Both the position numbers and the translations under genes were made by a program. From Acaryochloris marina MBIC11017 (GTDB lineage: Bacteria > Cyanobacteriota > Cyanobacteriia > Thermosynechococcales > Thermosynechococcaceae): DNA of 32,000 nt. The stretch covers positions 150,001 to 182,000 of the forward strand of contig NC_009925.1 of NCBI RefSeq assembly GCF_000018105.1. Reading direction: 5' to 3'. The notes beneath the pieces were generated by a model. It did not search any database, had not been told where the DNA came from, and was given only the letters and a program-made list of their open reading frames with translations. Positions 8,676-29,280 of this stretch are shown piece after piece; positions within the stretch are counted from its first letter, which is position 1, and every line of letters starts with the position of its first letter.

Positions 8676-8894
8676 AAGGCACCATTGCTCCACTTTTGTT
8701 GAGAACGTGCTTGGAAGACTGTGTGGTTCTATTACATAAGGCAGGCGAAGGCTATATCTGATGGCAGAGTTCTAATTGATGAATTCTAACCAACCCTTCC
8801 TTAGAAAAAATATCACTAATCAGATGTCAGTGACTTTCCCAGCTTTTATGCATTACTCCTTAGACTCCGCCACCTAGCACTGCACCCTGCGAAA

Positions 8895-8937
8895 AATGCC
8901 TGATATGGAAGAATTTTAGCTCTCTATATCAGGCATT
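8895..8937. repeat. Inverted repeat (12-bp arms, 19-nt spacer) just outside the IS left end
   Basis: aatgcctgatat (8895-8906) and atatcaggcatt (8926-8937) are perfectly complementary. Confidence 0.7.
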
Positions 8938-8946
8938 GTACTTTTA

Positions 8947-10088: not shown

Positions 10089-10123
10089 TATCAATTATGC
10101 ATGTACTCATTAGGTTCATCTAA

Positions 10124-10846: not shown

Positions 10847-10935
10847 AAGAATGTCCCCACTCCTGGGTTGGACAGTAAATTTGAATGGTGTTGATTTGAG
10901 TTTAGGAATCGCCAGTTATCAATATTCTCCAATCG

Positions 10936-12237
10936 TCATTCAACAGGGCGAGCGGCGGCTGGACGATAACTGGAGCGATACGGTAGACGAACGGGCATTG
11001 TAGGTACCGTCAAATGTTCTGCCTTAGACAAGGATTGCTCTTTCCTCACTCTTTGGGCATACCAGTTGGCACCGGGAAACGCTGACAGCCCATGAGCAAA
11101 GATGCTGAGCAAAACTGTAGACACCACAATGGTAAATATCTGCTCTCGTCCCTGGATGGCTTCCCGATTCAGAACCATTAGCACGTAGAGAATGGAGGCC
11201 ACGCCGCGAGGACCAAACCACCCCAGAAATAGTTGGGTGTCCCAACGGAGTTTCATGCCAACAAGGCTAAGGGAAACACTCAAGATCCTAGCTGCAGTGA
11301 GGCTTAGAACGGCATAGAGAATCACTCTGCCCTGGATTTGCGTAAGAACAGGCAAGACCATTAGACCGCCAAAAATGACGAAGGTAACGAGGATAAAAAA
11401 CTGACCTTCTGTCTCACCATATTCATATAGGCGAGGGCAAAGTTCTCGATTCGTATTGCCTAAGGTCAGTCCGGCACAGAAGGCAGCGATAAATCCATTA
11501 CCACCCAGGGGTTCAGCCAAACAGAAGGCCAGTGCAGCCAAAGAAAGCAGTGATAAGCGTTGATAGTTCTCAGTCATCCAATGGGTACGAGCCGTGGTCG
11601 CAATCAGTTGTCCTCCCAAATAGCCCACCAGAATACCCACTACGGATCCCATGATGAGTTGAGCCAAGGCAAACCCACCCCAGCTAGCAACAGTTTGTTC
11701 TCCCCCCGCTGACTCAGCTAGGGATAAGAAAATCAATAAGATAGGCAGACAAATCCCGTCATTCAGCCCACTCTCAATATTCAAGGCTTGTCGAATTCGC
11801 ACGGGCACGTTGGGACTATTGACTACGGCCTGCCCTAGGGCGGCATCGGTGGGAGCCAGTATGGTAGCAACAGCGGCGGCTTCCCATATATTGAGTTGGG
11901 GAAAGAGTGCGATCGCAAACCCGCTACCTAACAGGATCGTTAACGGTAAGCCAATCCCCAACAGTCTGAGGGGCAGTTGATACTGCTGTTTCAAGAGTTT
12001 GAAATCAATCCGAGACGCATCGGTGAACAGGACGAAGACCAAGGTTGTGGTGGCAATAATATCTACCACTTCACTATCCACGGACAGATTCAGCAGTTGG
12101 CTAACCAAGGGACTAATCAAGAGTCCAAAGGTGGCAAAAATCATCGGTGGCGTAATCATGCTCTTTTCGATCCGCCCCGAAACTGAACCAAATACCAGGG
12201 TAAAGAGGGAAATGATCGTAACGGCTTCTAGGATCAT
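10936..12237 (-). CDS. Na+/H+ (cation:proton) antiporter, CPA1/NhaP type
   Basis: The protein is multi-TM with the characteristic ESGLNDG motif and FGPRG; its length and topology are typical of CPA1. Confidence 0.8.
   Translation of the reverse strand: MILEAVTIISLFTLVFGSVSGRIEKSMITPPMIFATFGLLISPLVSQLLNLSVDSEVVDIIATTTLVFVLFTDASRIDFKLLKQQYQLPLRLLGIGLPLTILLGSGFAIALFPQLNIWEAAAVATILAPTDAALGQAVVNSPNVPVRIRQALNIESGLNDGICLPILLIFLSLAESAGGEQTVASWGGFALAQLIMGSVVGILVGYLGGQLIATTARTHWMTENYQRLSLLSLAALAFCLAEPLGGNGFIAAFCAGLTLGNTNRELCPRLYEYGETEGQFFILVTFVIFGGLMVLPVLTQIQGRVILYAVLSLTAARILSVSLSLVGMKLRWDTQLFLGWFGPRGVASILYVLMVLNREAIQGREQIFTIVVSTVLLSIFAHGLSAFPGANWYAQRVRKEQSLSKAEHLTVPTMPVRLPYRSSYRPAAARPVE
11909..11916. 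repeat. HIP1 palindrome GCGATCGC
   Basis: Exact 8-mer read in sequence. Confidence 0.95.
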
Positions 12238-12277
12238 GATGGGTAATGCTGAACAACGGGCTGAGTCAATTTTTTAG

Positions 12278-13030
12278 TTAAACAGCGGTCGGTTCTGTCA
12301 GTGCGATCGCATCCCGAAGTTGAGGACGGCTATACCAACTCCACTGTCCTTCCGTAACTGGCTGGATATTGAACTCAGACCGCAAGTCATCTAGGGGCTG
12401 TTCGAACCGTTCTTCCCACTTCACGGGGAACAGAGGCTTTGCGTCTCGTCCTATCTTGATGCCCGTAGACAAGATGTCATAGTCATATTCAACATCGATA
12501 CCGTTATCTTGGGGACCACCAAAAAAGTCCAGCAACATACCCAGAAGATTGATCAATATCCAACCGGGATAGCCCGTCTGGGCAACGGTAACAGACAGGA
12601 CACCCGCTTCACCAAAGTCATCCATGCTAAAGCCCGTCAAAATATGATGTAAATCATGGGTTTTACGAATGCGATTGATTACATAATCTGCATCCTTTTC
12701 AATATTGCGTAGGCGATAGAAGTGGGGCTCGTATCCCAATGCACTCATTACTCGGGCATAGGTCCACCCTAATGATCCTTCCGGCATCTGCAACATTTTC
12801 TCCAAGTCATACTCTGAACCCAAATATTGCGCTTCAATCATTTGAGCAGTCGCTGCATCTTCTCTCATCCAGGTCAGACAGCGCTCCATTTGGGGACTAT
12901 CTCGCAGCAAGTCGCTAATATCAAATACCTCATTCACATCCGTCCCGGCCCCGGCAACATGATCAATAAAGGTCAATAGCTGGTTGATATTGTCAGGTGT
13001 GGCAATTTCATTGATATATTTGAACCCCAT
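12278..13030 (-). CDS. Coq4-family protein (HDxxH-x11-E zinc-binding motif)
   Basis: THDLHHILTGFSMDDFGEAGV matches the Coq4 HDxxH(x)11E signature. GGGAGA lies about 6 nt upstream of the ATG. Confidence 0.6.
   Translation of the reverse strand: MGFKYINEIATPDNINQLLTFIDHVAGAGTDVNEVFDISDLLRDSPQMERCLTWMREDAATAQMIEAQYLGSEYDLEKMLQMPEGSLGWTYARVMSALGYEPHFYRLRNIEKDADYVINRIRKTHDLHHILTGFSMDDFGEAGVLSVTVAQTGYPGWILINLLGMLLDFFGGPQDNGIDVEYDYDILSTGIKIGRDAKPLFPVKWEERFEQPLDDLRSEFNIQPVTEGQWSWYSRPQLRDAIALTEPTAV
12303..12310. repeat. HIP1 palindrome GCGATCGC
   Basis: Exact 8-mer read in sequence. Confidence 0.95.
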
Positions 13031-14175: not shown

Positions 14176-17100
14176 TTGATTGCTGTAGATGCTCTGGCTG
14201 TTCTAGAAAAAACCCTGCCCCCCGGAACACTCAACCAAGTTAAAACATTGGTGTTTAAGCAAGCCTGGGACGGTAAAGGCTATGCAGAAATTGCTGAAGA
14301 GGCTGGCTACGATACGGACTATATAAAAAGTGTGGCCGCTCAACTTTGGAAAAGCATTTCCTCAGAACTAGGCGAAAAAGTCACCAAAACAAATTTTCGG
14401 TCCTTATTGATTCAGCGATTGGACAAATCTGATGTCAGTGAGGATTCACTAGTTCAACCACCTATCGCAGAGGACTCTACCCCACTTCCTTCAGGTATAG
14501 CCAATGAGAAAGCCCCTGTTGTGGACTGGGGCGAAGCCCCCGATGTCTCTAAATTTTATGGCCGTAATGAAGAACTTGCCCAAATTTCTACCTGTAATCT
14601 GACCGAGGGGTGTCGATTAGTGGCCGTGTTGGGCATGGGAGGGATGGGCAAAACGAGCTTAATCGCAAAGCTGGCCCAGCAGGTCCAACATCACTACGAT
14701 TTTGTGATTTGGCGATCCCTCCGCAACGCGCCAACAGCAGACGAGGTCATTGCAGAACTGATCCCCTTTCTGTCTGAGCAACAATCCGATCAATGCTCGA
14801 CCCGCCAACTGGTGCAATGTCTGCGAGCCTCTAAATGCTTGATCATATTCGACAATCTGGAGTCGATTCTCCAGGCTGGACAAGTGGGATACTACCGCCC
14901 AGGCTATGAAGAATATGGGAATCTACTTCGGGTTGTGGGAGAAACGGCTCACCAAAGTTGTTTGCTCCTCACTAGCCGAGAGAAACCGCCAGAGGTGGCC
15001 GAATTAGAAGGCTTGGACTTAGCCGTTCGCTCCTTTTCCCTGCGAGGTTCCTCTGAAGTCGCCACTGCATTACTCAATGCCAAAGGAATTGAGGGTAGCC
15101 CCGAGCAGCAACAGCAGCTGAGCCATCACTATGGGGGGAGTCCTCTAGCCCTCAAAATTATTGCCAGCTCTATCCAAGATTTATTTGAAGGCAACCTAGA
15201 GGACTTTTTAGCCCAAGAAACGGTGGCCTTTAACGGCATACGCCGTCTGCTAGACCAGCAGTTTAAACGGTTGAGTCCCCTCGAAAAAGTTATTCTGAAC
15301 TGGTTAGCGATTAATCGAGAGTGGACTTCGATTGCAGAATTGCAGCGAGATATTGTGCCAACCGTATCCATGGCCAGCTTACTGGAATCGCTGGAAGCCC
15401 TTACCTGGAGGAACCTGATTGAGAAAAATGTCAGTCGCCAAGGGCAATCTGGACAATACACCTTGCAACCTGTCGTTATGGAATATGTGACCAATGATTT
15501 AGTCCAGCAGGTGTATCAAGATTTGATGGAAGATACAGACTCTCAGGGGGTGCAGAGGCAAGGTCTGACATCATCACAGTCCTACTTTCATACCCATGCT
15601 CTACTGAAAACAACTGTCAAAGACTATATTCAAGACAGCCAGAAACGCCTGATATTAGAGCCCTTAGCCCAATTACTCCGCAACACTTTTTTCTCTGCCC
15701 CCATGCTGGCGCAATGGGTACAGTCAGTGTTAAATCAACTCCATACCAGTCCAGTGACTGGATATGGGCCTGGAAATTTGATCAATCTCTGCCGTCAACT
15801 CAAGCTGGATTTAACAGGGTATGATTTCTCCCAACTTCCCATCTGGCAGGCAAACCTTCGGGATATGTCTTTACCTCAGGTCAATTTTAAGGGGGCTAAT
15901 TTTCAGCAGACCTTGTTCACTCAATCTCTTAGCGGCATTCTTAACATTGCCTACAGCCCTAAAGGAGACTTTCTAGCAACCATTGATGCCACTGGGAGTG
16001 TTCGCCTCTGGCAAGTTGCGGATGGTCAACTCCATATGTCTTTTGAGGATCACAGTTACTGGGGGTGGGCATTGGCCTTTAGCCCCGATGGCCAGCAACT
16101 GGCCAGTGGCGGCGAAGACAATATGGTCAGAGTTTGGGATGTTACTACTGGCCAATGTATTAACAGTTTGGAACTCAAGTGTAATGTGGTTTGGACTGTA
16201 GCCTTTAGTCCCAATGGTCAAACCCTAGCGATTGGTACCAGTGATACGGATATTTTGCTGTGGGACCTTGAAAGGAATCAGTTGCCCGAAGTATTGCAAG
16301 GGCATACCAGCGATGTGAGATCGCTCCAGTTCAGTCCTGATGGTCAACAGTTAGTCAGTGCTAGTCACGATCACACCCTTAAAATTTGGAATTTGCAATC
16401 AGGAAAGTGCCAGCAAACTTGTGTCGGCCATTCTGAGTGGGTCCTTTCTGTCGCTTATAGTATTGATGGTCAGACCCTAGCGAGCGGAAGTGCTGACCGT
16501 ACAGTCAGATTGTGGGATGTGAAGACGGGGCAATGCCGCCAGACTTTATCGGGGCATGATCTTATGGTTACTGCCATTGCCTTCAGCCCAGATGGCCAAC
16601 ATATTGCTAGTGCCAGTGAAGACCGCACCGTCAGAGTGTGGGATGTCCGTGGCCAGCATCTGAAAACCTTAGTTGGTCATCTGCATTGGGTTTGGTCCGT
16701 GGCCTTTAGTCCGGATGGTCAAATGCTAGCCAGCGGCGGGAGCGATCAAACCGTTAGATTTTGGCACGTACAAACCGGTCGACCTTTGAAGACCTTGGCT
16801 GGTTATATCGACTACTCCTATGCTCTAGCCTGGCTTCCTGATGGACAAGCTCTACTATCTGGAAGCTCCAATCACACGATACGCACTTGGGAACAAGGTC
16901 GCTGCAGACAAACCTGGAAGGCTCACGAAAACTGGGTTTGGTCTGTTAGCTGTAGACCTGACGGACAAGTTTTAGCCAGTGGGTCCAACGCTGTCAAATT
17001 ATGGGATATGGAGACCAATGCTTGTATAGCCACATTGCAGGAGGATGAGGGATTTGTCTTTTGTCTGGCCTGGAGTCCCAATGGCCGATATTTTGCTACA

Positions 17101-17778
17101 GGTTCCTCAGATCATCGAGTTAGGATTTGGAAAGCGGACACTCAGCGATGTCTACAACTTTTGGAAGGGCATGAAGGTTGGGTGTTTCAGGTTGCCTGGA
17201 GTCCCAATGGTCAAAGTTTGGCGAGCTGTGGTGTAGATGGAACAGCAAACGTCTGGAACATAAAAACAGGAGACTGTCTGCAAACGTTTCATGAAGACAA
17301 TTGGATTTGGTCTGTGGTCTGGAGTCCTGATCACCGATTTCTGGCCTACAGTACAGCCGATGGGAACATTAAATTCTGGGACACCAAAACGTGGAAACTA
17401 CTGCAGACTCTGACGGGCCATACGGCTCAAGTCACCCGGATCGACTTTAGTCCCTCTGGCAGGCGACTAGCCAGTGGAAGTTACGACCTTACGATCAAAA
17501 TTTGGGATGTTGAGACAGGCAACTGTCAACAGACTTTAACGGGGCATACTCAAATTATTACCAATCTCGTCTTTAATCCTGTTGAAACGGACAATAGCTG
17601 CCTGTTGGCCAGTGCGAGTGAGGATGAAACCCTAAGGATTTGGAATATCCTTTCAGGTGAATGTCAGCATGTTCTTAGACCAGAAGGCCCCTATGAAGGA
17701 ATGAACGTTGCTGACACTTCAGGGTTAACCCCAGCTCAAATCAAGTCTCTACAATCTTTGGGTGCTGTGACGGGTTAA
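14176..17778 (+). CDS. STAND NTPase: N-terminal LuxR/sigma70-r4-like HTH, NB-ARC-type P-loop ATPase, 14 WD40 repeats
   Basis: HTH-like segment GYAEIAEEAGYDTDYIKSVAAQLWKSI. Conserved pre-ATPase box VDWGEAPDVSKFYGRNEEL. Walker A GMGGMGKTSL and Walker B LIIFDNLES. LLLTSREKP and GGSPLALKI correspond to the NB-ARC RNBS-B and GLPL motifs. A short pentapeptide-like segment follows (LDLTGYDFSQLPIWQANLRDMSLPQVNFKGANF). I counted 14 WD units, enough for two 7-bladed propellers, and a C-terminal tail PYEGMNVADTSGLTPAQIKSLQSLGA. The only in-frame start upstream of the HTH is TTG 14176. Confidence 0.9.
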   Translation: MIAVDALAVLEKTLPPGTLNQVKTLVFKQAWDGKGYAEIAEEAGYDTDYIKSVAAQLWKSISSELGEKVTKTNFRSLLIQRLDKSDVSEDSLVQPPIAEDSTPLPSGIANEKAPVVDWGEAPDVSKFYGRNEELAQISTCNLTEGCRLVAVLGMGGMGKTSLIAKLAQQVQHHYDFVIWRSLRNAPTADEVIAELIPFLSEQQSDQCSTRQLVQCLRASKCLIIFDNLESILQAGQVGYYRPGYEEYGNLLRVVGETAHQSCLLLTSREKPPEVAELEGLDLAVRSFSLRGSSEVATALLNAKGIEGSPEQQQQLSHHYGGSPLALKIIASSIQDLFEGNLEDFLAQETVAFNGIRRLLDQQFKRLSPLEKVILNWLAINREWTSIAELQRDIVPTVSMASLLESLEALTWRNLIEKNVSRQGQSGQYTLQPVVMEYVTNDLVQQVYQDLMEDTDSQGVQRQGLTSSQSYFHTHALLKTTVKDYIQDSQKRLILEPLAQLLRNTFFSAPMLAQWVQSVLNQLHTSPVTGYGPGNLINLCRQLKLDLTGYDFSQLPIWQANLRDMSLPQVNFKGANFQQTLFTQSLSGILNIAYSPKGDFLATIDATGSVRLWQVADGQLHMSFEDHSYWGWALAFSPDGQQLASGGEDNMVRVWDVTTGQCINSLELKCNVVWTVAFSPNGQTLAIGTSDTDILLWDLERNQLPEVLQGHTSDVRSLQFSPDGQQLVSASHDHTLKIWNLQSGKCQQTCVGHSEWVLSVAYSIDGQTLASGSADRTVRLWDVKTGQCRQTLSGHDLMVTAIAFSPDGQHIASASEDRTVRVWDVRGQHLKTLVGHLHWVWSVAFSPDGQMLASGGSDQTVRFWHVQTGRPLKTLAGYIDYSYALAWLPDGQALLSGSSNHTIRTWEQGRCRQTWKAHENWVWSVSCRPDGQVLASGSNAVKLWDMETNACIATLQEDEGFVFCLAWSPNGRYFATGSSDHRVRIWKADTQRCLQLLEGHEGWVFQVAWSPNGQSLASCGVDGTANVWNIKTGDCLQTFHEDNWIWSVVWSPDHRFLAYSTADGNIKFWDTKTWKLLQTLTGHTAQVTRIDFSPSGRRLASGSYDLTIKIWDVETGNCQQTLTGHTQIITNLVFNPVETDNSCLLASASEDETLRIWNILSGECQHVLRPEGPYEGMNVADTSGLTPAQIKSLQSLGAVTG

Positions 17779-17845: not shown

Positions 17846-18802
17846 TTAGGATGTTCCTTGATCTGGTTTTGAAAGATTATTCGGGTCCGCTCGCCAAAAA
17901 ATAACAAAGGTGGCTTTACTGAGCTTCTTAACAGATTTCACCAGGCTGACATAGTAAGTTTTATCGTCAACTTTGAACTCATATACTGGCCCCCCTCCGT
18001 ATTCACCAATTTTTTTAGGTTGAGAAGCAGATTTGAAGGCTGGAATGGTTGGGAAAGAGGCTAAGACTTCATCAGGTTCTTTAAGACGATAGTAACGAGG
18101 ACTATTGATAATCGCTCCTAAAGCCGCTAATTTTGGATTTTTGAAATCAAACGCTTTTATGCTTTCTGGCGTAAAAAACTTTTCGGGTTCAGGAAACTCT
18201 TCAGGACCGGGAATGTAATCAAAATCTGATTCAACCTCAGAATTAATTAATGCTTGGTCTAACTCGCCAAAAATGGTTTCCACCTCTTCACTTTCAATCG
18301 GAGGAGCAGGAGGAGTATCGGTTTCCTGATTTTTAGCATTAAGATCAGAATCATTCTTGGGCTCCGAGTCAGAAGATTGAGATTCTGAGTCTTTAGGATC
18401 TTGCTTCTCAGTTGTTTGATCCTTAGAACCAGGCTTTTGTTCTGGCTTGAGCCTTTCTATTTCTGGGGGTTTAGGTGAATCGGGTAACACAGGTAGCGGG
18501 CGAGGTGTCACCGGTGCTCTCTGAATCCTTGGCTTGGGCTTAGGCTTAGGCTTGGGTTTCGATTTAACTTTTGTCCGCTTCAACGATACCGTTTTTGTGA
18601 TGGGTATATCTTTAATTTTAGGTTGTTCTACTTTAGTTTCTAAGGAAACAGGCGTGGCCAGTATGGCGCCATGAACCATTGCAGAGATCAGCACCAGAGG
18701 ATGTTTGAATAACCACCAAAGGAAAAAACGTTTGGGGGGTTTGGGTGCCTCCGGGATATATGTCTTTGGAGGGGTTGGAGGTGGTTTAATCTGCGTAGTC
18801 AT
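17846..18802 (-). CDS. TonB-like energy-transducer protein with a non-canonical C-terminal domain
   Basis: The N-terminal TM anchor LVLISAMVHGAILA carries the TonB SxxxH motif (E. coli has LLSVCIHGAVV). A Pro/Lys-rich rigid spacer includes KPKPKPKPKPKP. The gene lies in the same strand run as exbB-exbD-exbD. I do not recognise the last ~130 aa as a TonB C-terminal domain. The start is ATG 18802 (MTTQIKPPP); the track start 18880 would abut the pstS terminator. Confidence 0.65.
   Translation of the reverse strand: MTTQIKPPPTPPKTYIPEAPKPPKRFFLWWLFKHPLVLISAMVHGAILATPVSLETKVEQPKIKDIPITKTVSLKRTKVKSKPKPKPKPKPRIQRAPVTPRPLPVLPDSPKPPEIERLKPEQKPGSKDQTTEKQDPKDSESQSSDSEPKNDSDLNAKNQETDTPPAPPIESEEVETIFGELDQALINSEVESDFDYIPGPEEFPEPEKFFTPESIKAFDFKNPKLAALGAIINSPRYYRLKEPDEVLASFPTIPAFKSASQPKKIGEYGGGPVYEFKVDDKTYYVSLVKSVKKLSKATFVIFWRADPNNLSKPDQGTS
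18531..18560 (-). repeat. Hexanucleotide tandem repeat encoding the (KP)n tract
   Basis: ggcttg ggctta ggctta ggcttg ggtttc: five tandem 6-nt units inside the TonB-like CDS. Confidence 0.8.
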
Positions 18803-18883
18803 GGACAATCGGTGGTCAATGAAAAGGAATTGAATGCTGCCTTTTGGAATGAAAAGGTTTGGAAGAACACTTAAAATCAACTT

Positions 18884-18931
18884 TTCAAAAAAGAAGTTCC
18901 TGAGGAAGAACTCGTGAACTTCCTCAGGAAC
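18884..18931 (-). terminator. Rho-independent terminator after pstS
   Basis: The minus-strand RNA is GUUCCUGAGGAAG-(10 nt loop)-CUUCCUCAGGAAC, a perfect 13-bp stem, followed by UUCUUUUUUG. It lies 40 nt past the pstS stop. Confidence 0.8.
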
Positions 18932-18970
18932 AATCAGCAGAGTGTGAGAAAACCAAAGTTAGCTTGTTGT

Positions 18971-19963
18971 CTATTTGGATTTGAGCACTTCAGAGACCTT
19001 TAGGCCATCTGTATCTCTACCCGCAAAGAAGCTGCCAGTCTTGCCTTCGCGGAAATTTTTAGCCGCTTGCTGATAAGCCGGAGCAGGTAAAGGGATATAG
19101 CCGACTTCAGCAGAAAACTCAGCAGCTTTTCTGAGGTAGTAGTTCACAAACTGGCGAACTTCAGGACGCTTGGCGGCCTTCTTATTGACATAAATAAAGA
19201 TAGGGCGAGACAGAGGCGTGTAGGTGCCATTCTCCACTGCTTCACGGGAGGGGAGGACGGGTCCATTACCATTGTCAATCGCCACTGCATTCAGGCGATC
19301 TTTATTTTGCTCATAGTAGGCAAATCCAAAATATCCAATTCCATTGGGCTCACGGGAAACGCCTTGAACCAAAATATTGTCATCTTCGCTGGCGGTTATA
19401 TCTTTGCGATGATTTTTCTTGGCAATGGTGCCATTGAAGTAGTCAAAAGTACCCGAATCAGAACCTGGGGCATAAAAGCTGATTTTATCAGCGGGCCAGC
19501 TGGAATTGACTTCTTTCCATGTAGTAACAGAACCCTCTGGGTTTTCTGACCACATCTTCTTGAGTTCAGCAACGGTCATACTCTTGATGGGATTGCCTTT
19601 GTTGACCACAACGGTTAAAGCATCAAAAGCAACAGGGATTTCGATATACTCAACCCCTTCACAAAGCTTTTGTTCTTTCTCTTTAATGGGTCGAGATGCG
19701 TCAGAAATATCTGTTTCACCTGCACAAAACTTCTTAAAACCGCCACCGGTTCCAGACACACCGACTGTGACGTTAACCTTGTTATTTGTTAACTTTTGAA
19801 ATTCCTCAGCAACGGCTTCACTGATTGGAAATACGGTACTGGAACCGTCAATTTTTATCTTTTTAGTTTGGGCATCGGCAGAAGTGGCCGAGAAAGCAGT
19901 TGTGCTGACGGCGACCGCTAGCGAAACAACCGCACCTGTCAGGGTCGAACGATTCAGCTGCAT
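18971..19963 (-). CDS. pstS: Phosphate ABC transporter substrate-binding protein PstS (orphan copy inside the exbBD/tonB-like cluster)
   Basis: Signal peptide ...AFSATSADAQT, then KIDGSSTVFPISEAVAEEF, GSDSGTFDYF and GYFGFAYY, which are PstS-family hallmarks. It is roughly half identical by eye to the pstS at 31250. The start is ATG 19963 with GGAG 7 nt upstream; the track start 19984 is TTG. Confidence 0.85.
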   Translation of the reverse strand: MQLNRSTLTGAVVSLAVAVSTTAFSATSADAQTKKIKIDGSSTVFPISEAVAEEFQKLTNNKVNVTVGVSGTGGGFKKFCAGETDISDASRPIKEKEQKLCEGVEYIEIPVAFDALTVVVNKGNPIKSMTVAELKKMWSENPEGSVTTWKEVNSSWPADKISFYAPGSDSGTFDYFNGTIAKKNHRKDITASEDDNILVQGVSREPNGIGYFGFAYYEQNKDRLNAVAIDNGNGPVLPSREAVENGTYTPLSRPIFIYVNKKAAKRPEVRQFVNYYLRKAAEFSAEVGYIPLPAPAYQQAAKNFREGKTGSFFAGRDTDGLKVSEVLKSK

Positions 19964-20007
19964 ACCTTTCTCCATAATTAACAATCGATACGTAATTTAG
20001 AAAAAAT

Positions 20008-20056
20008 GACTTAAAGCCAAAGCAAGAATACCTAAGCAAGATTAAGGTCAGTTAAT
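20008..20056 (-). promoter_or_regulatory. Candidate Pho box array upstream of the orphan pstS
   Basis: In minus sense: ATTAACTG ac CTTAATCT tg CTTAGGTA tt CTTGCTTT gg CTTTAAGT. These are five 8-mers phased every 10 bp. CTTAATCT fits PyTTAAPyPy(T/A) exactly, and an isolated exact CTTAACCT lies at 20094-20101. The array ends about 45 nt upstream of the ATG. The spacing is 10 bp, not the canonical 11. Confidence 0.4.
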
Positions 20057-20140
20057 GGAAAATGCTGATTTGGTTTATGGGAATGTTATTGCCAGGTTAA
20101 GTTTGTCGCCCAGAGAAAAATATCTAAATCTTCAATTTTT

Positions 20141-20566
20141 CTATTTGTCCTGCAGGAGAAGTGATATACGATCGCCCCCCATTTTTCCCATTTTTTTGAG
20201 CAGTGCAGAAACCTTTGAGTAGGGTAGTTTCCGGTCGGCACTCAAAATGATTCTTCCTTGCGGGTTTTTGTCAATATAAGTAGAGATACGATTTGCAAGT
20301 TTGCCAGAATTGACAGGCTCATTATCTAAAATGATTTCCTCCTTCAATGTCAGCCCTACAACCAGCGGATTGGCCTGCTGCGGCAGCTTATTATTATCTA
20401 TTGAGGCAGTATTTGAAGTTGGCAAGGTCACTTGCAAAACCTGTTGCCCCGTTAAGGTCATGGAAATGATGATAAAAAACGTCAGCACAGACATTAATAC
20501 ATCCATCAAAGGCACCAAATTCACCTCTGGGATTTGAGAACCAGTTTTGCGAGATCGAAAACGCAT
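20141..20566 (-). CDS. exbD: Biopolymer transport protein ExbD/TolR (copy 2)
   Basis: IPEVNLVPLMDVLMSVLTFFII is the typical ExbD N-terminal TM motif, and the size (~141 aa) fits. ATG 20566 (MRFRSRK) is preferred over the TTG at 20578. Confidence 0.85.
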   Translation of the reverse strand: MRFRSRKTGSQIPEVNLVPLMDVLMSVLTFFIIISMTLTGQQVLQVTLPTSNTASIDNNKLPQQANPLVVGLTLKEEIILDNEPVNSGKLANRISTYIDKNPQGRIILSADRKLPYSKVSALLKKMGKMGGDRISLLLQDK

Positions 20567-20570
20567 AAAT

Positions 20571-20981
20571 TTATTCAATAATTAAAGACACGCGCTCACC
20601 CCCGGCAGCTCGCATCAGATCGAGTTTGTGCATCATCTTTTCGTAAGTCAATTTGGGGTTTGGCTTCAAAAACACATTGCCCTTGGGATTATCCAGCAAA
20701 TACTGGCGGACCTTGGCCTGTAGCTCTTTATCAGAGATGGACTGCTTGTCCCGGGATGCCTGACCTTGGTTATCTAGATCCACCACAAATTGATTTTTAA
20801 GATCCGAGAGTTTGATCTCCTGTTGCCCACCTGCTTCTTGAGGAAGTTGAACCTCTAAGCTTTTTTGCTTGCTCAAGGTCATGGTGATCATCACAAAAAA
20901 AGCCAAGATTCCCATCATCACGTTGAGCATGGGAATCAAGTTAATTTCGGGAATCGTCGATTCTTGTTGAGCAAATTTCAT
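20571..20981 (-). CDS. exbD: Biopolymer transport protein ExbD/TolR (copy 1)
   Basis: IPEINLIPMLNVMMGILAFFVM motif, 136 aa, directly downstream of exbB. Confidence 0.85.
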   Translation of the reverse strand: MKFAQQESTIPEINLIPMLNVMMGILAFFVMITMTLSKQKSLEVQLPQEAGGQQEIKLSDLKNQFVVDLDNQGQASRDKQSISDKELQAKVRQYLLDNPKGNVFLKPNPKLTYEKMMHKLDLMRAAGGERVSLIIE

Positions 20982-21020
20982 AGATTTGAATGCAAAGTAC
21001 CAAGGGCAGCAGCAATACCT

Positions 21021-21728
21021 TTACAGAGTTTCTAAAGTAACCTGGGTAGGTTCAACTGAACTGCCTTTTGGCAAATAGGCAGGACGGTTGACCTGGTTGG
21101 GTTCGTACCAGACCTGTCGATAAATCAATTCCATTTCGCTTCCCACTTCGGAGAATGTATCGACTTGGCGGGCCTGCAAAATCACAAAAATGCGTAGAAC
21201 AATCAGGGCCAAAATGGCAACGACCATCCCCGCTGCTGTGGTTAAGAGGGCTTCACCAATCCCTGCAGCCGCTTTGGTTGCCTGTTCAGAGGTGCCCCCA
21301 CTGCCAATGTTGAGATTATTAAAAGTATTGATCAGGCCAGTTACTGTTCCCAAAAGACCCATCAGGGGGGCAACCGCCACAGTTGTTTCCAGTAGCTTAT
21401 CGCCCTTGCGCATTCTGACAAATTCTTTATCTGCCGCCGCTTCCAGGGCTAAGCGGAAGGTCTCTGGCGAGGGTTGATGCAAGCGCAGCGGTGCTAACAG
21501 GAATCGGCCAATGGGCAAAAACCGAGCATGCTGAGCAATGGCTTCCGCTTCCTCTAAGCTGCAGCGAGCTGCATCCAAGACATCATGAACAATACGATGT
21601 TCTTGACTGATCAAACGGATCCAGAAAATGGTTCGTTCGAAGGCACACGCTAAAGTCAGTACAGATAATCCCGCAATGGGAATCATGACTGGGCCACCCT
21701 TGGCCAGGAAAGTATAGATTGTGGACAC
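21021..21728 (-). CDS. exbB: MotA/TolQ/ExbB proton-channel protein
   Basis: Three TM helices and the motif APLMGLLGTVTGLINTF. The GTG start at 21728 has GGAG about 6 nt upstream. Confidence 0.85.
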   Translation of the reverse strand: MSTIYTFLAKGGPVMIPIAGLSVLTLACAFERTIFWIRLISQEHRIVHDVLDAARCSLEEAEAIAQHARFLPIGRFLLAPLRLHQPSPETFRLALEAAADKEFVRMRKGDKLLETTVAVAPLMGLLGTVTGLINTFNNLNIGSGGTSEQATKAAAGIGEALLTTAAGMVVAILALIVLRIFVILQARQVDTFSEVGSEMELIYRQVWYEPNQVNRPAYLPKGSSVEPTQVTLETL

Positions 21729-21813
21729 GGTGTCTCCAGAATTAACCAGGTCTTGTCAGCCTTATGAAGAGAAGACTCACGTCGAATAGGATAACTGAAA
21801 CCCTCTCAACACT

Positions 21814-21867
21814 GGGTTAAGAGAACTGCAGGATCAGGTTAAGCATCCATTAATTCGCCTTAACCTT
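21814..21867 (-). promoter_or_regulatory. Candidate Pho box (SphR/PhoB-type) upstream of exbB
   Basis: In minus sense: GTTAAGGC ga ATTAATGG atg CTTAACCT ...14 nt... CTTAACCC. The TTAA cores are spaced 10, 11 and 22 bp apart. Exact CTTAACCT occurs on the minus strand (21836-21843) and also on the plus strand (21860-21867). The site lies 86-139 nt upstream of the exbB start, in the 147-bp gap after the STAND gene stop. Confidence 0.45.
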
Positions 21868-21875: not shown

Positions 21876-24800
21876 TTACTCCAGTGTATCCGCCATGAAA
21901 TGCTCACAGGCTCCCAATGCTTTTAAGGAGGCTTTCTGAGCCTTCGTTAATCCCATTGCTCCAGCAATATTCATGCCATCGTAAAGGGGTTTTACTTTGA
22001 GAATTTTTTGGCATGCTCTGGAGTTCATCTGCCAGATCCTCAAGGTCTGGTCCTGGGAGCCACTGGCAATTTGAGGAGGGTCTGCATGAGATAAAGGGGG
22101 CAGAAAAGCTAAGGATCTCACCTCATTCTCATGGCCTTCAAACATCCCAATACAGTCCCCCGTCTCCAGTTCCCAAAGCTTAATGGTTTGGTCAAGGCTA
22201 CCACTGGCTAACGTTTTACCTTCAGGACTAAAGGCAACGGTATAAATGCCGTTGGTATGCCCCGTTAAGGTTTGCAGGCATTGTCCAGTTTGTACATCCC
22301 AGATTTTGATGGTGTGGTCAAAGCTGCCACTGACCACTAACTGGCCATCGGGACTAAAGGCGACTGAAAATACCCGATCCTTATGGCCCTTTAAAGTATG
22401 GATGTTCTCTCCAGTTTGAAGATCCCATAGCCTGATGGTCCGGTCTCCACTACCACTGGCAATGTACTGGCTATTGGGGCTAACCGCGACGGACCAAATC
22501 CAGGTCTGATGGCCCATTAAGGTCATGGTGCAGGCTTCTGAATTAAGGCTCCATACTTTAATGACATGGTCACTGGCTCCCGATACCAGCCAGTTGCCAT
22601 CAGGACTATAGGCCAAACCATAGATCCAACCCCGATGTCCGGTCAAGGCACTAATACATTGGCCACTGTGATAATGCCACAGCTTAATGGCATAGTCGCC
22701 GCCACCGCTGGCGAGGATCTCACCGTTGGGGCTAAAGGCTAAGGAGTAGATAGGTTGATGATGCCCCTTTAGGGATCGCAACAACGATCCCTCTTTCCGA
22801 TCCCACAGACGAATACTTTGGTCGAAACTTCCGCTGGCGATGGTTTGTCCATCAGGACTGCAAGCAACAGCGAAAATCCGATTGGTATACCCCGTTAGCA
22901 CTTTCAGGCAGTTGCCAGTGTCAACATCCCAGAGCCGCACAGTTTGATCCAAACTGCCACTGACGACCAAATGTTCATTGGGGTGAAAGGCGATGGCAAA
23001 AATTCCATGATGGTGTCCCGTAAGGGTGTGGAGACAGTGCCCCTGGTTAACATCCCACAATTTAATCGTTTGATCACCGCTACCACTCACTAAGCTACTG
23101 CCGTCAGGGCTAAAGGCCAAGGAATTCACCCAGTTGCGATGGCCCCGAAGGGTTTGTAATAGCTCTCCGCTATCGCCATCCCAGAGCTTAATCGTGCTGT
23201 CTGTACTACAGCTGGCTAGACGCTGGGTTTGGGGGCAAAATGCCACGGACATAATCCAGTTGTTATGTCCGTGCAAAGTATGCTGACAGGTCCCCTCATC
23301 AACGTCCCAAAGCTTGATGGTTTTATCTGAACTCCCACTGGCGATTCTTGAGTTATCAGGGCTAAAGGCCACGGTAAAAATAGCTTGTTGATGACCCGCT
23401 AGAGTCTGTAGGCAAGTGTAGTCATTAACCTCCCAAATTTTGAGAGTGGTGTCCCTACTGCCAGAAGCCAGCAGTTGCCCATCTGGGCTAAAGGCCACTG
23501 CACAGACTTCAGAGTCATGACCGTGGAAGGTGTAAAGACAGTTACCCGCTTCTGCATTCCAAAGCTTTAAGGTATGGTCGGCGCTTGCACTGGCCAAAGT
23601 TTGATTGTCAGGGCTGAACGAAACGGAAAGGACGGCATTTTGGTGCTCATGGCCCACCCACAGTTGCTGATAGGTATGGGCGCACCAGACTCTGACTTTG
23701 CAATCCTGATCTGCGATCGCAAGATATCGACCATCGGGACTAAAAGCCACTGCTTTCACTTCATCCAGAATTTCTGAGAAGGTAGAATCGAAAAATTTAA
23801 CATTGGCAAAGTTCGTACTGTGCAGCACCATCCCCTGCAAATCTGCTTGGCGAATCGTCATTTCCGAGAAATCACGACCACTCATATCCACCTTCATCAC
23901 CTTAGCCAGGTGAAGAAGATTGCTACAGAAATATCCTTTTTCCAGGTGAACTTGCTCCTGGAGTTGAGGGATTAAGGCAAATATATGTTCAATAATCGCC
24001 TCTGGTGTACCAAATGTAGCTAACAAGCGATCGACAATGGGCTGCACAATCAAACATCTTTGAGTTTCAACAACAGAAACGGGGGCTTGAGCTTTGACCA
24101 ATGGGTATTGGGCTAACCAGTTGATCTGATGCTGTTGGATCGAGGTAGAAACCTCTTGGATCAGCTGGACGGTCATGTACTCCATGACAACGGGCTGCAA
24201 GGTGAAAAAATGATCAGATTTCTCGATTAAGGATCGATTTTGGAGGGCTGCGACCGTTTGCAATAGTTCTCCCAAGGCAGTCGGTGACAGGATATCCGCC
24301 TGAATATCTTGATAGGAAACAGGTTCTCGATGGATGGCCAGCCAATATAACACCTCTGCCTCATGGGCACTGAGTCGTTGAAATTGCTGACTTAGTAAAT
24401 CCTGAATGTCATCAAAAATAAAAGGTTCTTGTTGGAGAAAGCTCAGAAAGTGACTGAGATTGGAGTCAAAAACGTCCCGAATAAAAGTGGCCACAATTTT
24501 TAGCGCCAAGGGATTACCGGTATAGCGCTCAATTAAGGTTGACCAGTCTTCCTCACCGCCTCTATAGGTGCCTATAGCGCTAAAAATTTCACGACCCGCT
24601 TGAGTGGATAGTCCTTGAATTTGATGGCAGCGAACCGGTAATTTGTCTCCTTCTAGTCCATTTAAACCCTGGGGTTTCTCTCTAGACGTCAGAAGTAGAC
24701 AGCTTTGGTGATAGGTTTCTCCGACAATTTTGAATAATTGCCCATATCCTTCATACCCAGCTCGATAAACACCAGCCCGATTGCAGTCTTCTAAAATCGA

Positions 24801-25451
24801 CTCAACATTGTCCAAGATCAGCAAACAGCGACGCTCCTGTAGATGCTGCACCAATCGCGACAACAAATCTGCAATAGATTCAAACACTCTTGTTTCCTGG
24901 TGATGAGAGAGAACTTGAATCAACTGAGACAATAAGGACTCTACAGCAGGGGCATTGCGTAAGCTACGGAAAATGACCGTGTCATATTGATCCTGTAATT
25001 CTTGAGCTAACTTCACAGCCAGAGACGTTTTGCCCACTCCTCCCATACCCAGAATGGTGATCAAGCGGCACTGATCCGTCTGAATCCAGGTGTGCAACGT
25101 AACGAGATCCGCCGACCGACCATAGAACCGGGAAACATCTATGGCCTCTCCCCAATCTTGAAAGTTTGCCGGAGGGGTGGGGGATTGTGATGGGGGCGAT
25201 TGAAGCTGTGAACTACTTTTCTGGACTGGATCGCCAAGATCTGCCACCGTTTGCCAATCTAAATTCAGTTGTTCGCAAAGCTCAACAAAAGTGGCGAAAT
25301 CGACAGGCTTTCCTCTCAAAAAGTTACTGACGGTAGACAAGCTAAAGCCAACATACTCAGCCAAGGAGCGCTGACTGTGGAAGCCACTCCGCTTCAACAC
25401 CACTTTAGTACGGGCAATACAATCACTACGGACACTCAGAGATCTAGACAT
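21876..25451 (-). CDS. STAND NTPase: N-terminal XRE-like HTH, NB-ARC-type P-loop ATPase, 14 WD40 repeats
   Basis: HTH-like SQRSLAEYVGFSLSTVSNFLRGKPVDFATFVELCEQLNL. Box QDWGEAIDVSRFYGRSADL. Walker A GMGGVGKTSL and Walker B LLILDNVES. LLLTSREKP and TGNPLALKI (GLPL-like). Pentapeptide-like VDMSGRDFSEMTIRQADLQGMVLHSTNFANVKF. I counted 14 WD units. The tail is PLYDGMNIAGAMGLTKAQKASLKALGA. Confidence 0.9.
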   Translation of the reverse strand: MSRSLSVRSDCIARTKVVLKRSGFHSQRSLAEYVGFSLSTVSNFLRGKPVDFATFVELCEQLNLDWQTVADLGDPVQKSSSQLQSPPSQSPTPPANFQDWGEAIDVSRFYGRSADLVTLHTWIQTDQCRLITILGMGGVGKTSLAVKLAQELQDQYDTVIFRSLRNAPAVESLLSQLIQVLSHHQETRVFESIADLLSRLVQHLQERRCLLILDNVESILEDCNRAGVYRAGYEGYGQLFKIVGETYHQSCLLLTSREKPQGLNGLEGDKLPVRCHQIQGLSTQAGREIFSAIGTYRGGEEDWSTLIERYTGNPLALKIVATFIRDVFDSNLSHFLSFLQQEPFIFDDIQDLLSQQFQRLSAHEAEVLYWLAIHREPVSYQDIQADILSPTALGELLQTVAALQNRSLIEKSDHFFTLQPVVMEYMTVQLIQEVSTSIQQHQINWLAQYPLVKAQAPVSVVETQRCLIVQPIVDRLLATFGTPEAIIEHIFALIPQLQEQVHLEKGYFCSNLLHLAKVMKVDMSGRDFSEMTIRQADLQGMVLHSTNFANVKFFDSTFSEILDEVKAVAFSPDGRYLAIADQDCKVRVWCAHTYQQLWVGHEHQNAVLSVSFSPDNQTLASASADHTLKLWNAEAGNCLYTFHGHDSEVCAVAFSPDGQLLASGSRDTTLKIWEVNDYTCLQTLAGHQQAIFTVAFSPDNSRIASGSSDKTIKLWDVDEGTCQHTLHGHNNWIMSVAFCPQTQRLASCSTDSTIKLWDGDSGELLQTLRGHRNWVNSLAFSPDGSSLVSGSGDQTIKLWDVNQGHCLHTLTGHHHGIFAIAFHPNEHLVVSGSLDQTVRLWDVDTGNCLKVLTGYTNRIFAVACSPDGQTIASGSFDQSIRLWDRKEGSLLRSLKGHHQPIYSLAFSPNGEILASGGGDYAIKLWHYHSGQCISALTGHRGWIYGLAYSPDGNWLVSGASDHVIKVWSLNSEACTMTLMGHQTWIWSVAVSPNSQYIASGSGDRTIRLWDLQTGENIHTLKGHKDRVFSVAFSPDGQLVVSGSFDHTIKIWDVQTGQCLQTLTGHTNGIYTVAFSPEGKTLASGSLDQTIKLWELETGDCIGMFEGHENEVRSLAFLPPLSHADPPQIASGSQDQTLRIWQMNSRACQKILKVKPLYDGMNIAGAMGLTKAQKASLKALGACEHFMADTLE
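23713..23720. repeat. HIP1 palindrome GCGATCGC
   Basis: Exact 8-mer read in sequence. Confidence 0.95.
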
Positions 25452-25847
25452 GCGTCATCCCAAAAAAAGTTGGCTAATTCGGTCCTATCGGTAGATGGTT
25501 CTGTTGCAGGTCTCAATGGGATCTGGACAGCTAGGGCTCAAGTTCTTCTGCTGCCTAAGAAGCTTTCTCTCAAAAAAGGGGTATAGATTTAGTTTTTTGA
25601 AGCATAATTTTTACTCCAGAAAAATGATATATCTGACCTCTATTAATGGTTTAGACCAATACTCTAAAGGGCTTATCCTGGCAAGTTCCATATATTGAAT
25701 GGTTCCTTTTATATCTAACGTTTATTCTGCAAAAAATCAAAAATAAATTAAGCAATAAGTCAGGTAGAAGTCAGTCATTCTCATGGCTTAAATCAGTCAG
25801 CTATGTCGTTTGATAGTAAATATCAAGTCTTTGATTCACTCAAATCT

Positions 25848-26195: not shown

Positions 26196-28244
26196 ATGGC
26201 TTTATTTGAAGGAACAGGCGATATTTCATCTGTGGTAGCCGATTTTCAGGCAGCATTAGGTGGGCCGAACAACGGCAATACGTTTGGCCCAGTTGCCAAC
26301 GGCAGACGAGAAATTAATTGGGATGCCAATATTGTCCCTTTTGACATGCCTGCTGATTTTTTCAACAAAACCGTTACCCGGGGTGCAGAGTTTGTGACCA
26401 ACGCCGGATCTGAGTTCCGAGTAAGCAACCCAGACCCGAGTGATCCAGGTGCCCCAGATGATGAATTTGACAGTATTAATGCCACCTACCCAGATCAGTT
26501 TGATACCTTTAGTGAATTTCGACTGTTTACCCCTTCGGGGTCAAATGTGACAGAAGTGGAATTTTTTGTGCCCGGCTCTGATGTTCGAGCAACGTCAAGC
26601 GGGTTTGGGGCGGTCTTTACGGATGTTGACTTAGCTGACAGCACCAAGATTGAGTACTTTGATATCGATGGCAATCTTCTCCAGTCTGAGTTTGTTAATC
26701 CTGACCCTCAAGGGTTGTCATTCTTGGGGGCAACCTTTGAAGAAGGCAATTTATACAAAGTCAAAATTACCAGCGGCAATACTCCCATTGGAGCCAATGA
26801 TGATCCTGCCAATGGGGTAGATGTGGTTGTCATTGATGACTTGCTCTACGGGGAGCCCCAAGCAGCCGAAACGCTGGATGGTGATGACGGTGACAACGTC
26901 CTTACCGGGACACCTGGGGGAGAGTTTATTCGAGGTTTCGGAGGGAACGATGCCATTCTGGCCTTTGGCGGCAATGACATTGCCCAAGGAGGCGATGGAA
27001 ATGACGTTATTAGCGGTGGAGATGGCAGCGACTTCCTAGATGGGGGCGCTGGAGATGACACCGTTATCGGTGACAAAGGGGATGACACCAAACTCGGGGG
27101 CGATGGTAACGATCGGATTATTTGGAATGATGGTGATGGATCTGATCGGATTGATGGCGGCGCAGATATGGACACCGTCGAAGTCAATGGCAGCCCTGAT
27201 TTAGGCGATGAGTTTGAAGTGGCCGCTGGAGCCAGCGATGTGTTTTTTCAACGGGTCAATCTGGGTCAATTCGACTTGGATATTAGTACCGTTGAGACCC
27301 TAGAAGTGAATAGTGATGGTGGAGACGACCAATTCACCGTTGGAGATCTGTCTGGCACTGGGCTAGAAAAAGTGGTTTTCAATGCCGGGTATGGTAGCGA
27401 TGTCCTGGAAGGTGCGGACGCGACCACTGATGTACAAGCATTGGGCGGCACTGGCGACGATACCTTCACCAGTGGTTCGGGGAATGACACCCTGGAAGGA
27501 GAAGGTGGCAATGACTCTCTTGCTGGCGGCAATGGTGATGATCAGCTCTTGGGTGGTGAAGGGGATGACACCCTTCGAGGTGGCAATGGCAACGATCTCA
27601 CAGACGGTGGCAGTGGGAACGATACGGCTGATTTTAGTGATATTCCCTTTGAGATCAGAGCGGATTTAAATACGGGAAAAGCTCAATACGATGTGGCCCC
27701 AGGTGTAACCGTCGAAGACACATTAGTCAGCATTGAAAACTTGACGGGTAGCACTTTTAATGACCGACTAGCAGGAGATCGCAATGCCAATATTTTGGAT
27801 GGTGGAGATGGCAATGATCGCTTAACGGGTCGTCGAGGAGCCGATACGCTTCTAGGAGGCAACGGAGATGACAACTTAATCGGTGGTAGAGGAGCCGATA
27901 GGCTAGTTGGTGGCGCGGATAAAGATGTCTTGCTGGGCGGTCGAGGAGCTGATGACCTCAATGGTGGAACCGGCAACGATCTGATGCGAGGCGGTCGAGG
28001 GGCTGATGTCTTTCGGTTTGAACGTGATCTCCTAGACGGCATCGCTGATCGTGATGTTATTCTGGATTTCCAAGCCCAGGATGCCTTCAATTTCGATGAT
28101 TACCTGGGTGCTGGCGGATCCGTTACCATCTCAAGAATTACGGGCGGCTTAAATATTGATTTGAGCGGAGAGGATACCATTATGGTTTTTGGTAGCCGAA
28201 GTGCCCTTAATGCGGCAGAAGCCCAACTGGAAGCATTGGTCTAA
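26196..28244 (+). CDS. RTX-type calcium-binding repeat protein (probable type I secretion substrate) with an unassigned ~220-aa N-terminal domain
   Basis: Three blocks of GGxGxDxUx nonapeptides (e.g. GGDGNDVISGGDGSDFLDGGAGDDTVIG and GGNGDDNLIGGRGADRLVGG). There is no N-terminal signal peptide, and the C-terminal region is acidic and repeat-free. GGGAG lies 8 nt upstream of the ATG. Confidence 0.85.
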   Translation: MALFEGTGDISSVVADFQAALGGPNNGNTFGPVANGRREINWDANIVPFDMPADFFNKTVTRGAEFVTNAGSEFRVSNPDPSDPGAPDDEFDSINATYPDQFDTFSEFRLFTPSGSNVTEVEFFVPGSDVRATSSGFGAVFTDVDLADSTKIEYFDIDGNLLQSEFVNPDPQGLSFLGATFEEGNLYKVKITSGNTPIGANDDPANGVDVVVIDDLLYGEPQAAETLDGDDGDNVLTGTPGGEFIRGFGGNDAILAFGGNDIAQGGDGNDVISGGDGSDFLDGGAGDDTVIGDKGDDTKLGGDGNDRIIWNDGDGSDRIDGGADMDTVEVNGSPDLGDEFEVAAGASDVFFQRVNLGQFDLDISTVETLEVNSDGGDDQFTVGDLSGTGLEKVVFNAGYGSDVLEGADATTDVQALGGTGDDTFTSGSGNDTLEGEGGNDSLAGGNGDDQLLGGEGDDTLRGGNGNDLTDGGSGNDTADFSDIPFEIRADLNTGKAQYDVAPGVTVEDTLVSIENLTGSTFNDRLAGDRNANILDGGDGNDRLTGRRGADTLLGGNGDDNLIGGRGADRLVGGADKDVLLGGRGADDLNGGTGNDLMRGGRGADVFRFERDLLDGIADRDVILDFQAQDAFNFDDYLGAGGSVTISRITGGLNIDLSGEDTIMVFGSRSALNAAEAQLEALV

Positions 28245-29153: not shown

Positions 29154-29280
29154 GGGGTCGCATCCACAAGCTTATCAGTGAGCGTAAATCTATTGTTCTT
29201 AATTCACCTTAAGGAACACAGCTTATTACTCGGTTAAGAAATAAGGTCATGTGTAAATTTTCCGCAAAGGATGATGTTCG

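Follow-up and report, generated by a model that had tools for sequence, protein, structure and literature searches.

A five-gene module with an embedded pstS and a TonB-like anchor gene links ExbB/ExbD to phosphate uptake genes in Acaryochloris marina and other cyanobacteria

In a 32,000-nucleotide stretch of the Acaryochloris marina MBIC11017 genome (NC_009925.1, positions 150,001 to 182,000 of the forward strand; the whole stretch is referred to as the window), five open reading frames (ORFs) follow one another in the same orientation on the minus strand, from 17846 to 21728: exbB, exbD1, exbD2, a paralogue of the phosphate-binding protein gene pstS, and a gene, here called X, for a TonB-like anchor protein. 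We put the probability at about one half that, in a subset of cyanobacteria, this module is induced by phosphate starvation and assists Pst uptake as a motor-coupled accessory. The co-linear minus-strand order and the positions given for the five genes in a preliminary description of this DNA were confirmed by ORF positions and domain matches, and the pstSCAB operon that it had reported close by was recovered, with the end of pstB 6.6 kb upstream of exbB (Table 1). Its parts belong to familiar types (a 5:2 motor, a TonB-like anchor, and PstS), and what is new is the head domain of X and the wiring to phosphate uptake; in the literature searched, neither the X family nor a connection of ExbBD to Pst in cyanobacteria was described.

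The association of ExbB/ExbD with phosphate genes, proposed from this one genome, was upheld by a survey of synteny. The five-gene module is intact in loci L001 and L005–L007 (Acaryochloridaceae/Thermosynechococcaceae), where it is joined to pstSCAB in L006 and to pstCA in L001, and a pstS gene within an exbBD cluster was also found in the distant marine locus L085. Because the same module recurs, fused to pst genes in L006 and L001, the linkage between ExbB/ExbD and phosphate uptake is no accident of a single genome. More distant homologs of X (∼25–35% identity in the C-terminal domain) occur in varied gene orders and adjoin pstS and/or exbB-exbD in Trichothermofontia, Gloeocapsopsis, a Phormidesmis-like genome, and marine and other metagenomes. 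A PstS-type gene (pstS or pstSCAB) was adjacent to X in 13 of 16 informative contexts, and exbB and/or exbD lay no more than three genes from X in the same fraction (13/16), both being raw counts over contexts that are not all independent, since several are close relatives. In L085 (1–4348, minus strand), the module is divergent from a gene for a 2735-aa protein with phytase-like, endonuclease/exonuclease/phosphatase, and 5′-nucleotidase domains, an arrangement which suggests a common phosphorus-scavenging locus.

Two promoter regions of the module carry phased Pho-box-like motifs. The SphR boxes of Synechocystis (pst1, pst2, and phoA) repeat 8-bp PyTTAAPyPy(T/A) units every 11 bp ahead of the −10 element (PMC4195498). 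Upstream of exbB, the minus strand reads ATTAATGG (21854–21847), CTTAACCT (21843–21836), and CTTAACCC (21821–21814), with TATCCT at 21793–21788; fit to the consensus is 5/8 and 8/8 for the first two units, the third phased position is unmatched, and the fourth fits at 7/8. Upstream of the embedded pstS, the same strand reads CTTAACCT (20101–20094), AATAACAT (20090–20083), and CATAAACC (20079–20072), then a second pair, ATTAACTG (20056–20049) and CTTAATCT (20046–20039), with TATTCT 8 nt further on (20030–20025). Here the first and last units match at 8/8, and the three between them are degenerate, with ATAA or CATAA cores; all five units keep the phase. Both boxes quoted earlier for the pstS promoter, CTTAACCT and CTTAATCT, were thus present; of those quoted for exbB, CTTAACCT at 21836–21843 and CTTAACCC at 21814–21821 were found on the minus strand, and the supposed second copy of CTTAACCT, at 21859–21866, lies on the plus strand and is not conserved.

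Upstream regions were aligned from six diverged genomes, including the distant marine locus L085. In the exbB promoter, the TTAA cores (at intervals of 11 bp and 22 bp, in that order) and the TATCCT hexamer do not vary among the six; nor do CTTAACC, ATAAC, and CATAA, in 11-bp phase, in the pstS promoter (window positions 20101–20072), where a −10-like hexamer after the repeats is likewise conserved, while the rest of both spacers has diverged to a mean column identity of ∼50%, with insertions and deletions. Pattern searches over 93 kb on both strands returned TTAAY-N17-TTAAC five times, at the exbB-upstream site only (shuffle mean 0.29), and CTTAACC-N4-ATAA-N7-ATAA once per locus, at the pstS-upstream site only (none in 100 shuffles); these patterns were derived after the alignments had been seen, so that the counts demonstrate uniqueness of the sites rather than independent significance. 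Because of their 11-bp phasing and their conservation at matching promoter sites across these six genomes, the Pho-box-like motifs are judged to lie above chance. Repeats of the CTTAACCT type also precede pstS or pstC in other loci. On these sequence grounds, Pho regulation of the module is probable. Scored as three Pho-box-like octamers phased at 11 bp, the highest-ranking site of the window (21/24) is 25734–25763 on the minus strand, in the spacer between the WD40 and RTX genes and away from the module promoters.

The same neighborhoods and promoters bear on a different account, in which the ExbB/ExbD proteins constitute a general system for iron or other inorganic ions and pstS was inserted by rearrangement. 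An ExbB-like unit of Synechocystis, sll0477-0479, does belong to an iron stress regulon (PMC4195498), and the region has been rearranged, with WD40 and RTX-repeat genes standing between pstB and exbB. Yet the embedded pstS and its promoter keep their position across genomes in which PstS identity falls to ∼64%, and also in a distant marine lineage, and the module is fused to pstSCAB in relatives. Since the importer linkage is repeated and the promoter motifs are conserved, this account appears highly improbable.

The embedded PstS passes the TIGR02136 model well above its cutoff of 206.6 bits and shares 52% identity with the PstS encoded in the nearby operon. Its most likely start is the ATG at 19963, downstream of a conserved GGAG; read from the translation, a signal peptide is present and the lipobox Cys is absent. 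A scan of one genome per species with this protein returned 80 loci. Relatives outside the Acaryochloris group (50–57% identity) are the first genes of pstSCAB wherever the locus extends far enough downstream, and neither exbB nor exbD was found near these relatives in the scanned loci. A special TonB-associated subfamily of PstS was considered and rejected, the nearest relatives being ordinary operon PstS proteins; by its sequence, the embedded PstS is probably an ordinary phosphate binder. Between pstS and X, direct folding of 18931–18886 gave a hairpin with a minimum free energy of −26.1 kcal/mol (z −2.65), which is likely an intrinsic terminator or attenuator. It was missed by a consensus terminator scan, probably because the unpaired stretch between its arms exceeds the 3- to 8-nt loop limit. 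Such an element fits high output of PstS with lower read-through into X.

Protein X comprises a short cytoplasmic N terminus, one transmembrane helix, a Pro-, Lys-, and Glu-rich linker of ∼115 residues, and a C-terminal domain of ∼150 residues. Its start is the ATG at 18802, giving a protein that begins MTTQ, and is the same in all homologs. Within the transmembrane helix (LISAMVHGAIL), Ser40 and His44 (S40-x3-H44) are invariant in ten close homologs; a Ser-x3-His helix is the signature for coupling of TonB to ExbB/ExbD and of TolA to TolQ/TolR. The linker (residues ∼52–165, containing KPKPKPKPKPKP) is predicted to be disordered (predicted local distance difference test [pLDDT] <50), and the C-terminal domain is well conserved across the ten close homologs. 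The preliminary description had called X a TonB-like transducer. This holds for the anchor His motif and the Pro-rich linker, but not for the head of the protein, in which Pfam, Protein Data Bank (PDB) profile, and fold searches revealed no TonB C-terminal domain. Because that domain is missing, the canonical contact with the TonB box of a TonB-dependent receptor is not implied for X. The window was correctly said to encode no TonB-dependent receptor, Plug and TonB-dependent receptor domains being found in none of its ORFs.

Searches of Pfam (E up to 10), NCBIfam, and PADLOC returned no match to X, and comparison of a profile with all PDB sequences yielded no relevant hit. Modeling of the whole protein succeeded poorly (pLDDT 55), with Foldseek hits at the level of noise. 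Prediction of the C-terminal domain from 35 diverse sequences gave a better model (mean pLDDT 84; predicted template modeling score [pTM] 0.77), for which Foldseek against the PDB returned a best E of 0.14 with template modeling (TM) scores below 0.3; structures of TonB or TolA were absent from the best 50 hits. As modeled, the C-terminal domain is of a new kind, other than the TonB domain.

An exhaustive HMMER search of 1.84 billion representative proteins with a profile of this domain (E up to 0.001) defined a family of 48 representative clusters at 50% identity, from cyanobacteria only. X shares 88% identity with a hypothetical protein of Acaryochloris sp. CCMEE 5410. Ten close homologs share the architecture of X and full-length family members are built alike, with the transmembrane His motif present in 43 of 46; at position −4 from the His, 34 have Ser and 8 have Ala (one spurious regular-expression match excluded). 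Named members come from Acaryochloridaceae, Trichothermofontia, Leptothermofonsia, Oculatella, Gloeocapsopsis, Phormidesmis, Desertifilum, Spirulina, Lyngbya, and Leptolyngbya, and no model strain is among them. Nearly all are annotated as hypothetical, with two Joint Genome Institute records reading “outer membrane biosynthesis protein TonB”; a Pfam scan of ten further family members gave zero matches. With the 35-sequence domain alignment as query, a word-indexed protein search found three proteins only, and a search of metagenome contigs with a subgroup alignment returned three loci.

The putative motor is made up of ExbB and two ExbD paralogs. ExbB, translated from a GTG start preceded by a conserved GGAGAC, passes PF01618 with 106.9 bits (cutoff 22.9), and orthologs of its gene were found in L001, L005–L007, and L085. 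Among the NCBIfam equivalogs (TolQ, ExbB, PomA, and MotA), none reaches its cutoff on this protein, those for TolQ and ExbB scoring far below, so that the protein is assigned to no subfamily. ExbD, TolR, and MotB carry an essential Asp in the membrane helix. In ExbD1, Asn occupies this position (PMLNVMM), and the protein still passes PF02472; the Asn form is conserved in L001, L005, L085, L092, and L093, and in L092 (Trichothermofontia) it is the sole ExbD beside X. ExbD2 retains the membrane Asp (PLMDVLM), as do all of its orthologs. Of the “complete inner-membrane energising set” of the preliminary description, ExbB and both ExbD paralogs are present, but only one of the two ExbDs has the essential Asp. 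This mixed Asp/Asn pair amounts to a natural experiment on the number of protonatable residues needed by such a motor. Zorya-type anti-phage defense was also considered and rejected: the sole match to the PADLOC models for ZorAB was a weak one of ZorA to ExbB (E 1.9e-4, 18 bits), explained by the shared MotA/ExbB domain, and the other four module proteins had no PADLOC hit at all.

Motors of this family also serve in envelope maintenance, and the module could be read accordingly, with ExbB/ExbD as TolQ/TolR, X as a TolA analog acting in outer-membrane attachment or division, and the adjacency to pst genes meaningless. TolA likewise has a Ser-x3-His anchor and a long linker, and in NCBIfam, ExbB and both ExbDs score highest against TolQ and TolR, by a small margin over ExbB/ExbD and all far below cutoff. 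An Anabaena tonB2 mutant has envelope phenotypes that its authors likened to those of Tol (PMC8597729). Against this stand the absence of tolB, pal, and cpoB-like genes among the window ORFs, the failure of Foldseek to match the fold of TolA domain III, linkage to nutrient ATP-binding cassette (ABC) importers in at least six different gene orders, and the conserved Pho-box-like repeats at both promoters. A Tol-like role is improbable, because the importer linkage is repeated and the promoter motifs are conserved.

The main rival gives X no action at the outer membrane and takes it as a periplasmic scaffold or chaperone for binding proteins, which would hold or recycle PstS, ModA, or ZnuA near the importer or in the thick periplasm of cyanobacteria, with or without motor energy. 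Gene adjacency is consistent with such a role, since X in most cases directly borders the gene for a binding protein or the final ABC gene: pstS adjoins X in the window, L085, L092, L094, L096, and L098, pstB adjoins X in L087 and L093, modBC adjoins X in L090, and X is next to znuA in L095; a C-terminal domain that is no TonB-box binder is equally consistent with it. Nevertheless, the invariant membrane His and the frequent linkage to exbB-exbD point to a driven element, a linker of ∼115 residues able to span the periplasm is unnecessary for reaching an inner-membrane importer, and the binding proteins for phosphate, molybdate, and zinc fall in different structural clusters. We consider a scaffold or chaperone role rather unlikely.

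In the favored reading, that of a starvation-induced accessory of Pst uptake, ExbB and the mixed ExbD pair (one Asp and one Asn) would form a proton-driven inner-membrane motor, coupled to X through the invariant membrane His. X would span the periplasm on its Pro-rich linker in the manner of TonB, ending in the new C-terminal domain instead of a TonB-box binder. Under phosphate scarcity, SphR acting at the Pho-box promoters would switch on the module and its own highly expressed PstS. X would then spend the energy of the motor on a partner located at the outer membrane or close by (a porin-type channel or a pool of phosphate bound at the surface being the likeliest), and delivery of phosphate to PstS and the PstCAB importer would thereby be raised. 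We infer this mechanism from gene neighborhood and promoter footprints, and with it induction by phosphate limitation, a physical coupling between X and ExbB/ExbD, the presence of a partner in the outer membrane and its identity, and the direction of the benefit to uptake. An outer-membrane partner is proposed because the linker is long and because a porin gene occurs in the Phormidesmis-like locus L088. That gene, of the OprB/SLH type (3429–5198, minus strand), lies inside a binding-protein/permease/ATPase operon divergent from X, and its product is a candidate for the partner. X of this locus is a 363-aa form with an extra middle domain.

Several observations weigh against the favored reading. 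Phosphate normally crosses outer membranes passively through porins, and no gene for an outer-membrane protein was found among the window ORFs. Good Pho boxes occupy two of the four to five phased positions in each promoter, the motifs being degenerate, and YTTAAYYW occurs at chance frequency in the window (25 matches versus 20.65 expected, with 21 of 100 shuffles reaching 25). Because of the hairpin, expression of X may be much reduced or separate. A BLASTP comparison of the N terminus of X with a hand-entered sequence of E. coli TonB was not significant, so that the likeness to TonB is one of motif and architecture, with no detectable homology. Neither TonB_C (PF03544/PF13103) nor the TolA C-terminal domain was detected in X by sequence or fold searches, and the target of X therefore cannot be inferred by homology. 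Finally, the family is not confined to phosphate genes, in that one outlying member stands by molybdate genes (L090) and another by zinc genes (L095).

A bolder proposal takes these outliers in. X may represent a new class of ExbB/ExbD-driven, periplasm-spanning transducer that acts on an outer-membrane partner which is not TonB dependent (e.g., a porin of the OprB/SLH type), so that under starvation the passage of small anions and metals (mainly phosphate, also molybdate and zinc) across the outer membrane of cyanobacteria would be actively energized and not diffusive alone; this we offer as a tentative possibility. Phosphate is a main limiting nutrient of cyanobacteria. It is usually taken to cross the outer membrane by passive diffusion through porins, all of the energy being spent at PstSCAB. 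Were the favored reading true, some cyanobacteria would spend proton-motive force on a step of phosphate capture before PstSCAB, and the family of 5:2 motors that includes ExbB/ExbD/TonB, Tol, Mot, and Zorya would gain a new output domain. ExbB-ExbD was reportedly found by Jiang et al. in 2015 to be needed for inorganic iron uptake in Synechocystis, and the module offers a concrete handle on this unexplained requirement in cyanobacteria.

Table 1. Positions of the module and associated features in the window, and gene orders around X in other loci (strand given relative to the sequence analyzed)
Locus	Feature	Coordinates	Strand	Description
Window	exbB	21021-21728	-	MotA/TolQ/ExbB-family proton channel, 235 aa; PF01618 E 7.8e-31
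Window	exbD1	20571-20981	-	ExbD/TolR family; PF02472 E 1.1e-22; PMLNVMM
Window	exbD2	20141-20578	-	ExbD/TolR family; PF02472 E 6.8e-24; PLMDVLM; likely start, ATG at 20566
Window	Embedded pstS paralogue	18971-19963 (ORF 18971-19984)	-	Periplasmic phosphate-binding protein; TIGR02136 298.8 bits; PF12849 E 4e-42
Window	Gene X	17846-18802 (ORF 17846-18880)	-	TonB-like anchor protein, 318 aa
Window	Hairpin between pstS and X	18886-18931	-	13-bp stem and U tract
Window	exbB promoter	21788-21854	-	Phased Pho-box-like octamers and −10-like TATCCT
Window	Internal promoter of embedded pstS	20025-20101	-	Phased Pho-box-like octamers and −10-like TATTCT
Window	pstS-pstC-pstA-pstB operon	28326-32000	-	Pfam hits and phmmer matches; pstS continues beyond window end
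L006 (Acaryochloris relative)	Gene order			pstS-pstC-pstA-pstB-exbB-exbD-exbD-pstS-X, uninterrupted
L001	Gene order			pstC-pstA-exbB-exbD-exbD-pstS-X
L085 (marine TARA contig)	Gene order			exbB-exbD-exbD-pstS-X
L087	Gene order			pstSCAB-X
L092 (Trichothermofontia), L098	Gene order			pstS-X-exbB-exbD
L093	Gene order			pstSCAB-X, two unknown genes, convergent exbB-exbD-exbD
L094, L096	Gene order			exbD-pstS-X
L097	Gene order			X-exbB-exbD
L088 (Phormidesmis-like)	Gene order			X flanked by binding-protein/OprB-SLH porin/two permeases/ATPase operon and by exbB-exbD
L090	Gene order	4288-7840		X after molybdate-type binding protein (modA) and fused permease-ATPase (modBC), among TOBE-domain genes
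L095	Gene order	7173-12815		X beside znuA, cobW, GTP cyclohydrolase I gene, and AraC regulator with TonB-dependent receptor

Around the module, two paralogous genes of ∼1200 aa were found (14176–17778, plus strand; 21876–25451, minus strand), each with an N-terminal helix-turn-helix (HTH)-like region, an NTPase region, and WD40 repeats, through which they match the PADLOC model HEAT-ARM_XIII. The upstream one, a WD40/STAND gene, is also present in L005 (1430–5008) and absent from L006 and L001, and appears to have been inserted between pstSCAB and exbB, separating them. In relatives, the pst operon directly abuts exbB, whereas in the window this gene and an RTX-repeat gene intervene; because the pst genes abut exbB in L006 and L001, where the WD40/STAND gene is absent, the 6.6-kb gap between pstB and exbB is most readily explained by insertion into an ancestral cluster of pst and exb genes. 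The flanking WD40/STAND genes were rejected as parts of the module on the same comparison. The RTX-repeat gene (26196–28244, plus strand), between pstB and the WD40 gene, encodes a protein of 682 aa in which RTX calcium-binding repeats, at least six in number, are all that could be recognized. A DDE_3 transposase with HTH domains (8975–10084, plus strand) is consistent with a rearranged region. Further away, tandem DUF1400 genes (5444–6073 and 6118–6819, minus strand) adjoin a gene for a Rieske/PaO-type oxygenase (7185–8693).

Compared with known systems, the module resembles in outline the TonB-ExbB-ExbD sets of E. coli and Anabaena (TonB3-ExbB3/ExbD3), in which ExbB/ExbD are encoded with a third protein bearing a His-containing N-terminal helix and a Pro-rich linker. 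It differs from them in that X has no TonB_C domain, in having two ExbDs of which one is without the membrane Asp, in its cargo system, which is the Pst importer rather than one for siderophores, cobalamin, or glycans, and in having no receptor gene nearby. Clusters with a similar order, exbB-exbD-exbD-tonB with a PstS-family gene, may exist in Bacteroidota, their tonB gene encoding a canonical TonB C-terminal domain; the literature searched yielded nothing on them. The TonB-like proteins of Anabaena are described with TonB-box-binding domains (PMC8597729) and so form a different family from X. With Tol-Pal, the module shares the motor family, the Ser-x3-His helix, the long linker, and a weak lean of its NCBIfam matches to TolQ/TolR; unlike Tol-Pal, it has no genes for TolB, Pal, and CpoB in the window and no match to the fold of TolA domain III, and it is linked to importers and has Pho-box-like promoters. 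These promoters share the TTAA core and 11-bp phasing of Synechocystis Pho promoters, but here two units per promoter fit fully or at 7/8 and the others are degenerate, the consensus being that of Synechocystis. The nearest published parallel for an ExbB/ExbD/TonB-type set tied to phosphate starvation is exbB2-exbD2-tonB4 of Pseudomonas aeruginosa (PA0693-PA0695), a member of the phosphate-starvation/sigma-VreI regulon whose function is uncharacterized (PMC7035377). Compared by description, that set, a putative TonB system, adjoins secretion and porin-like genes, has no embedded pstS, and belongs to another phylum.

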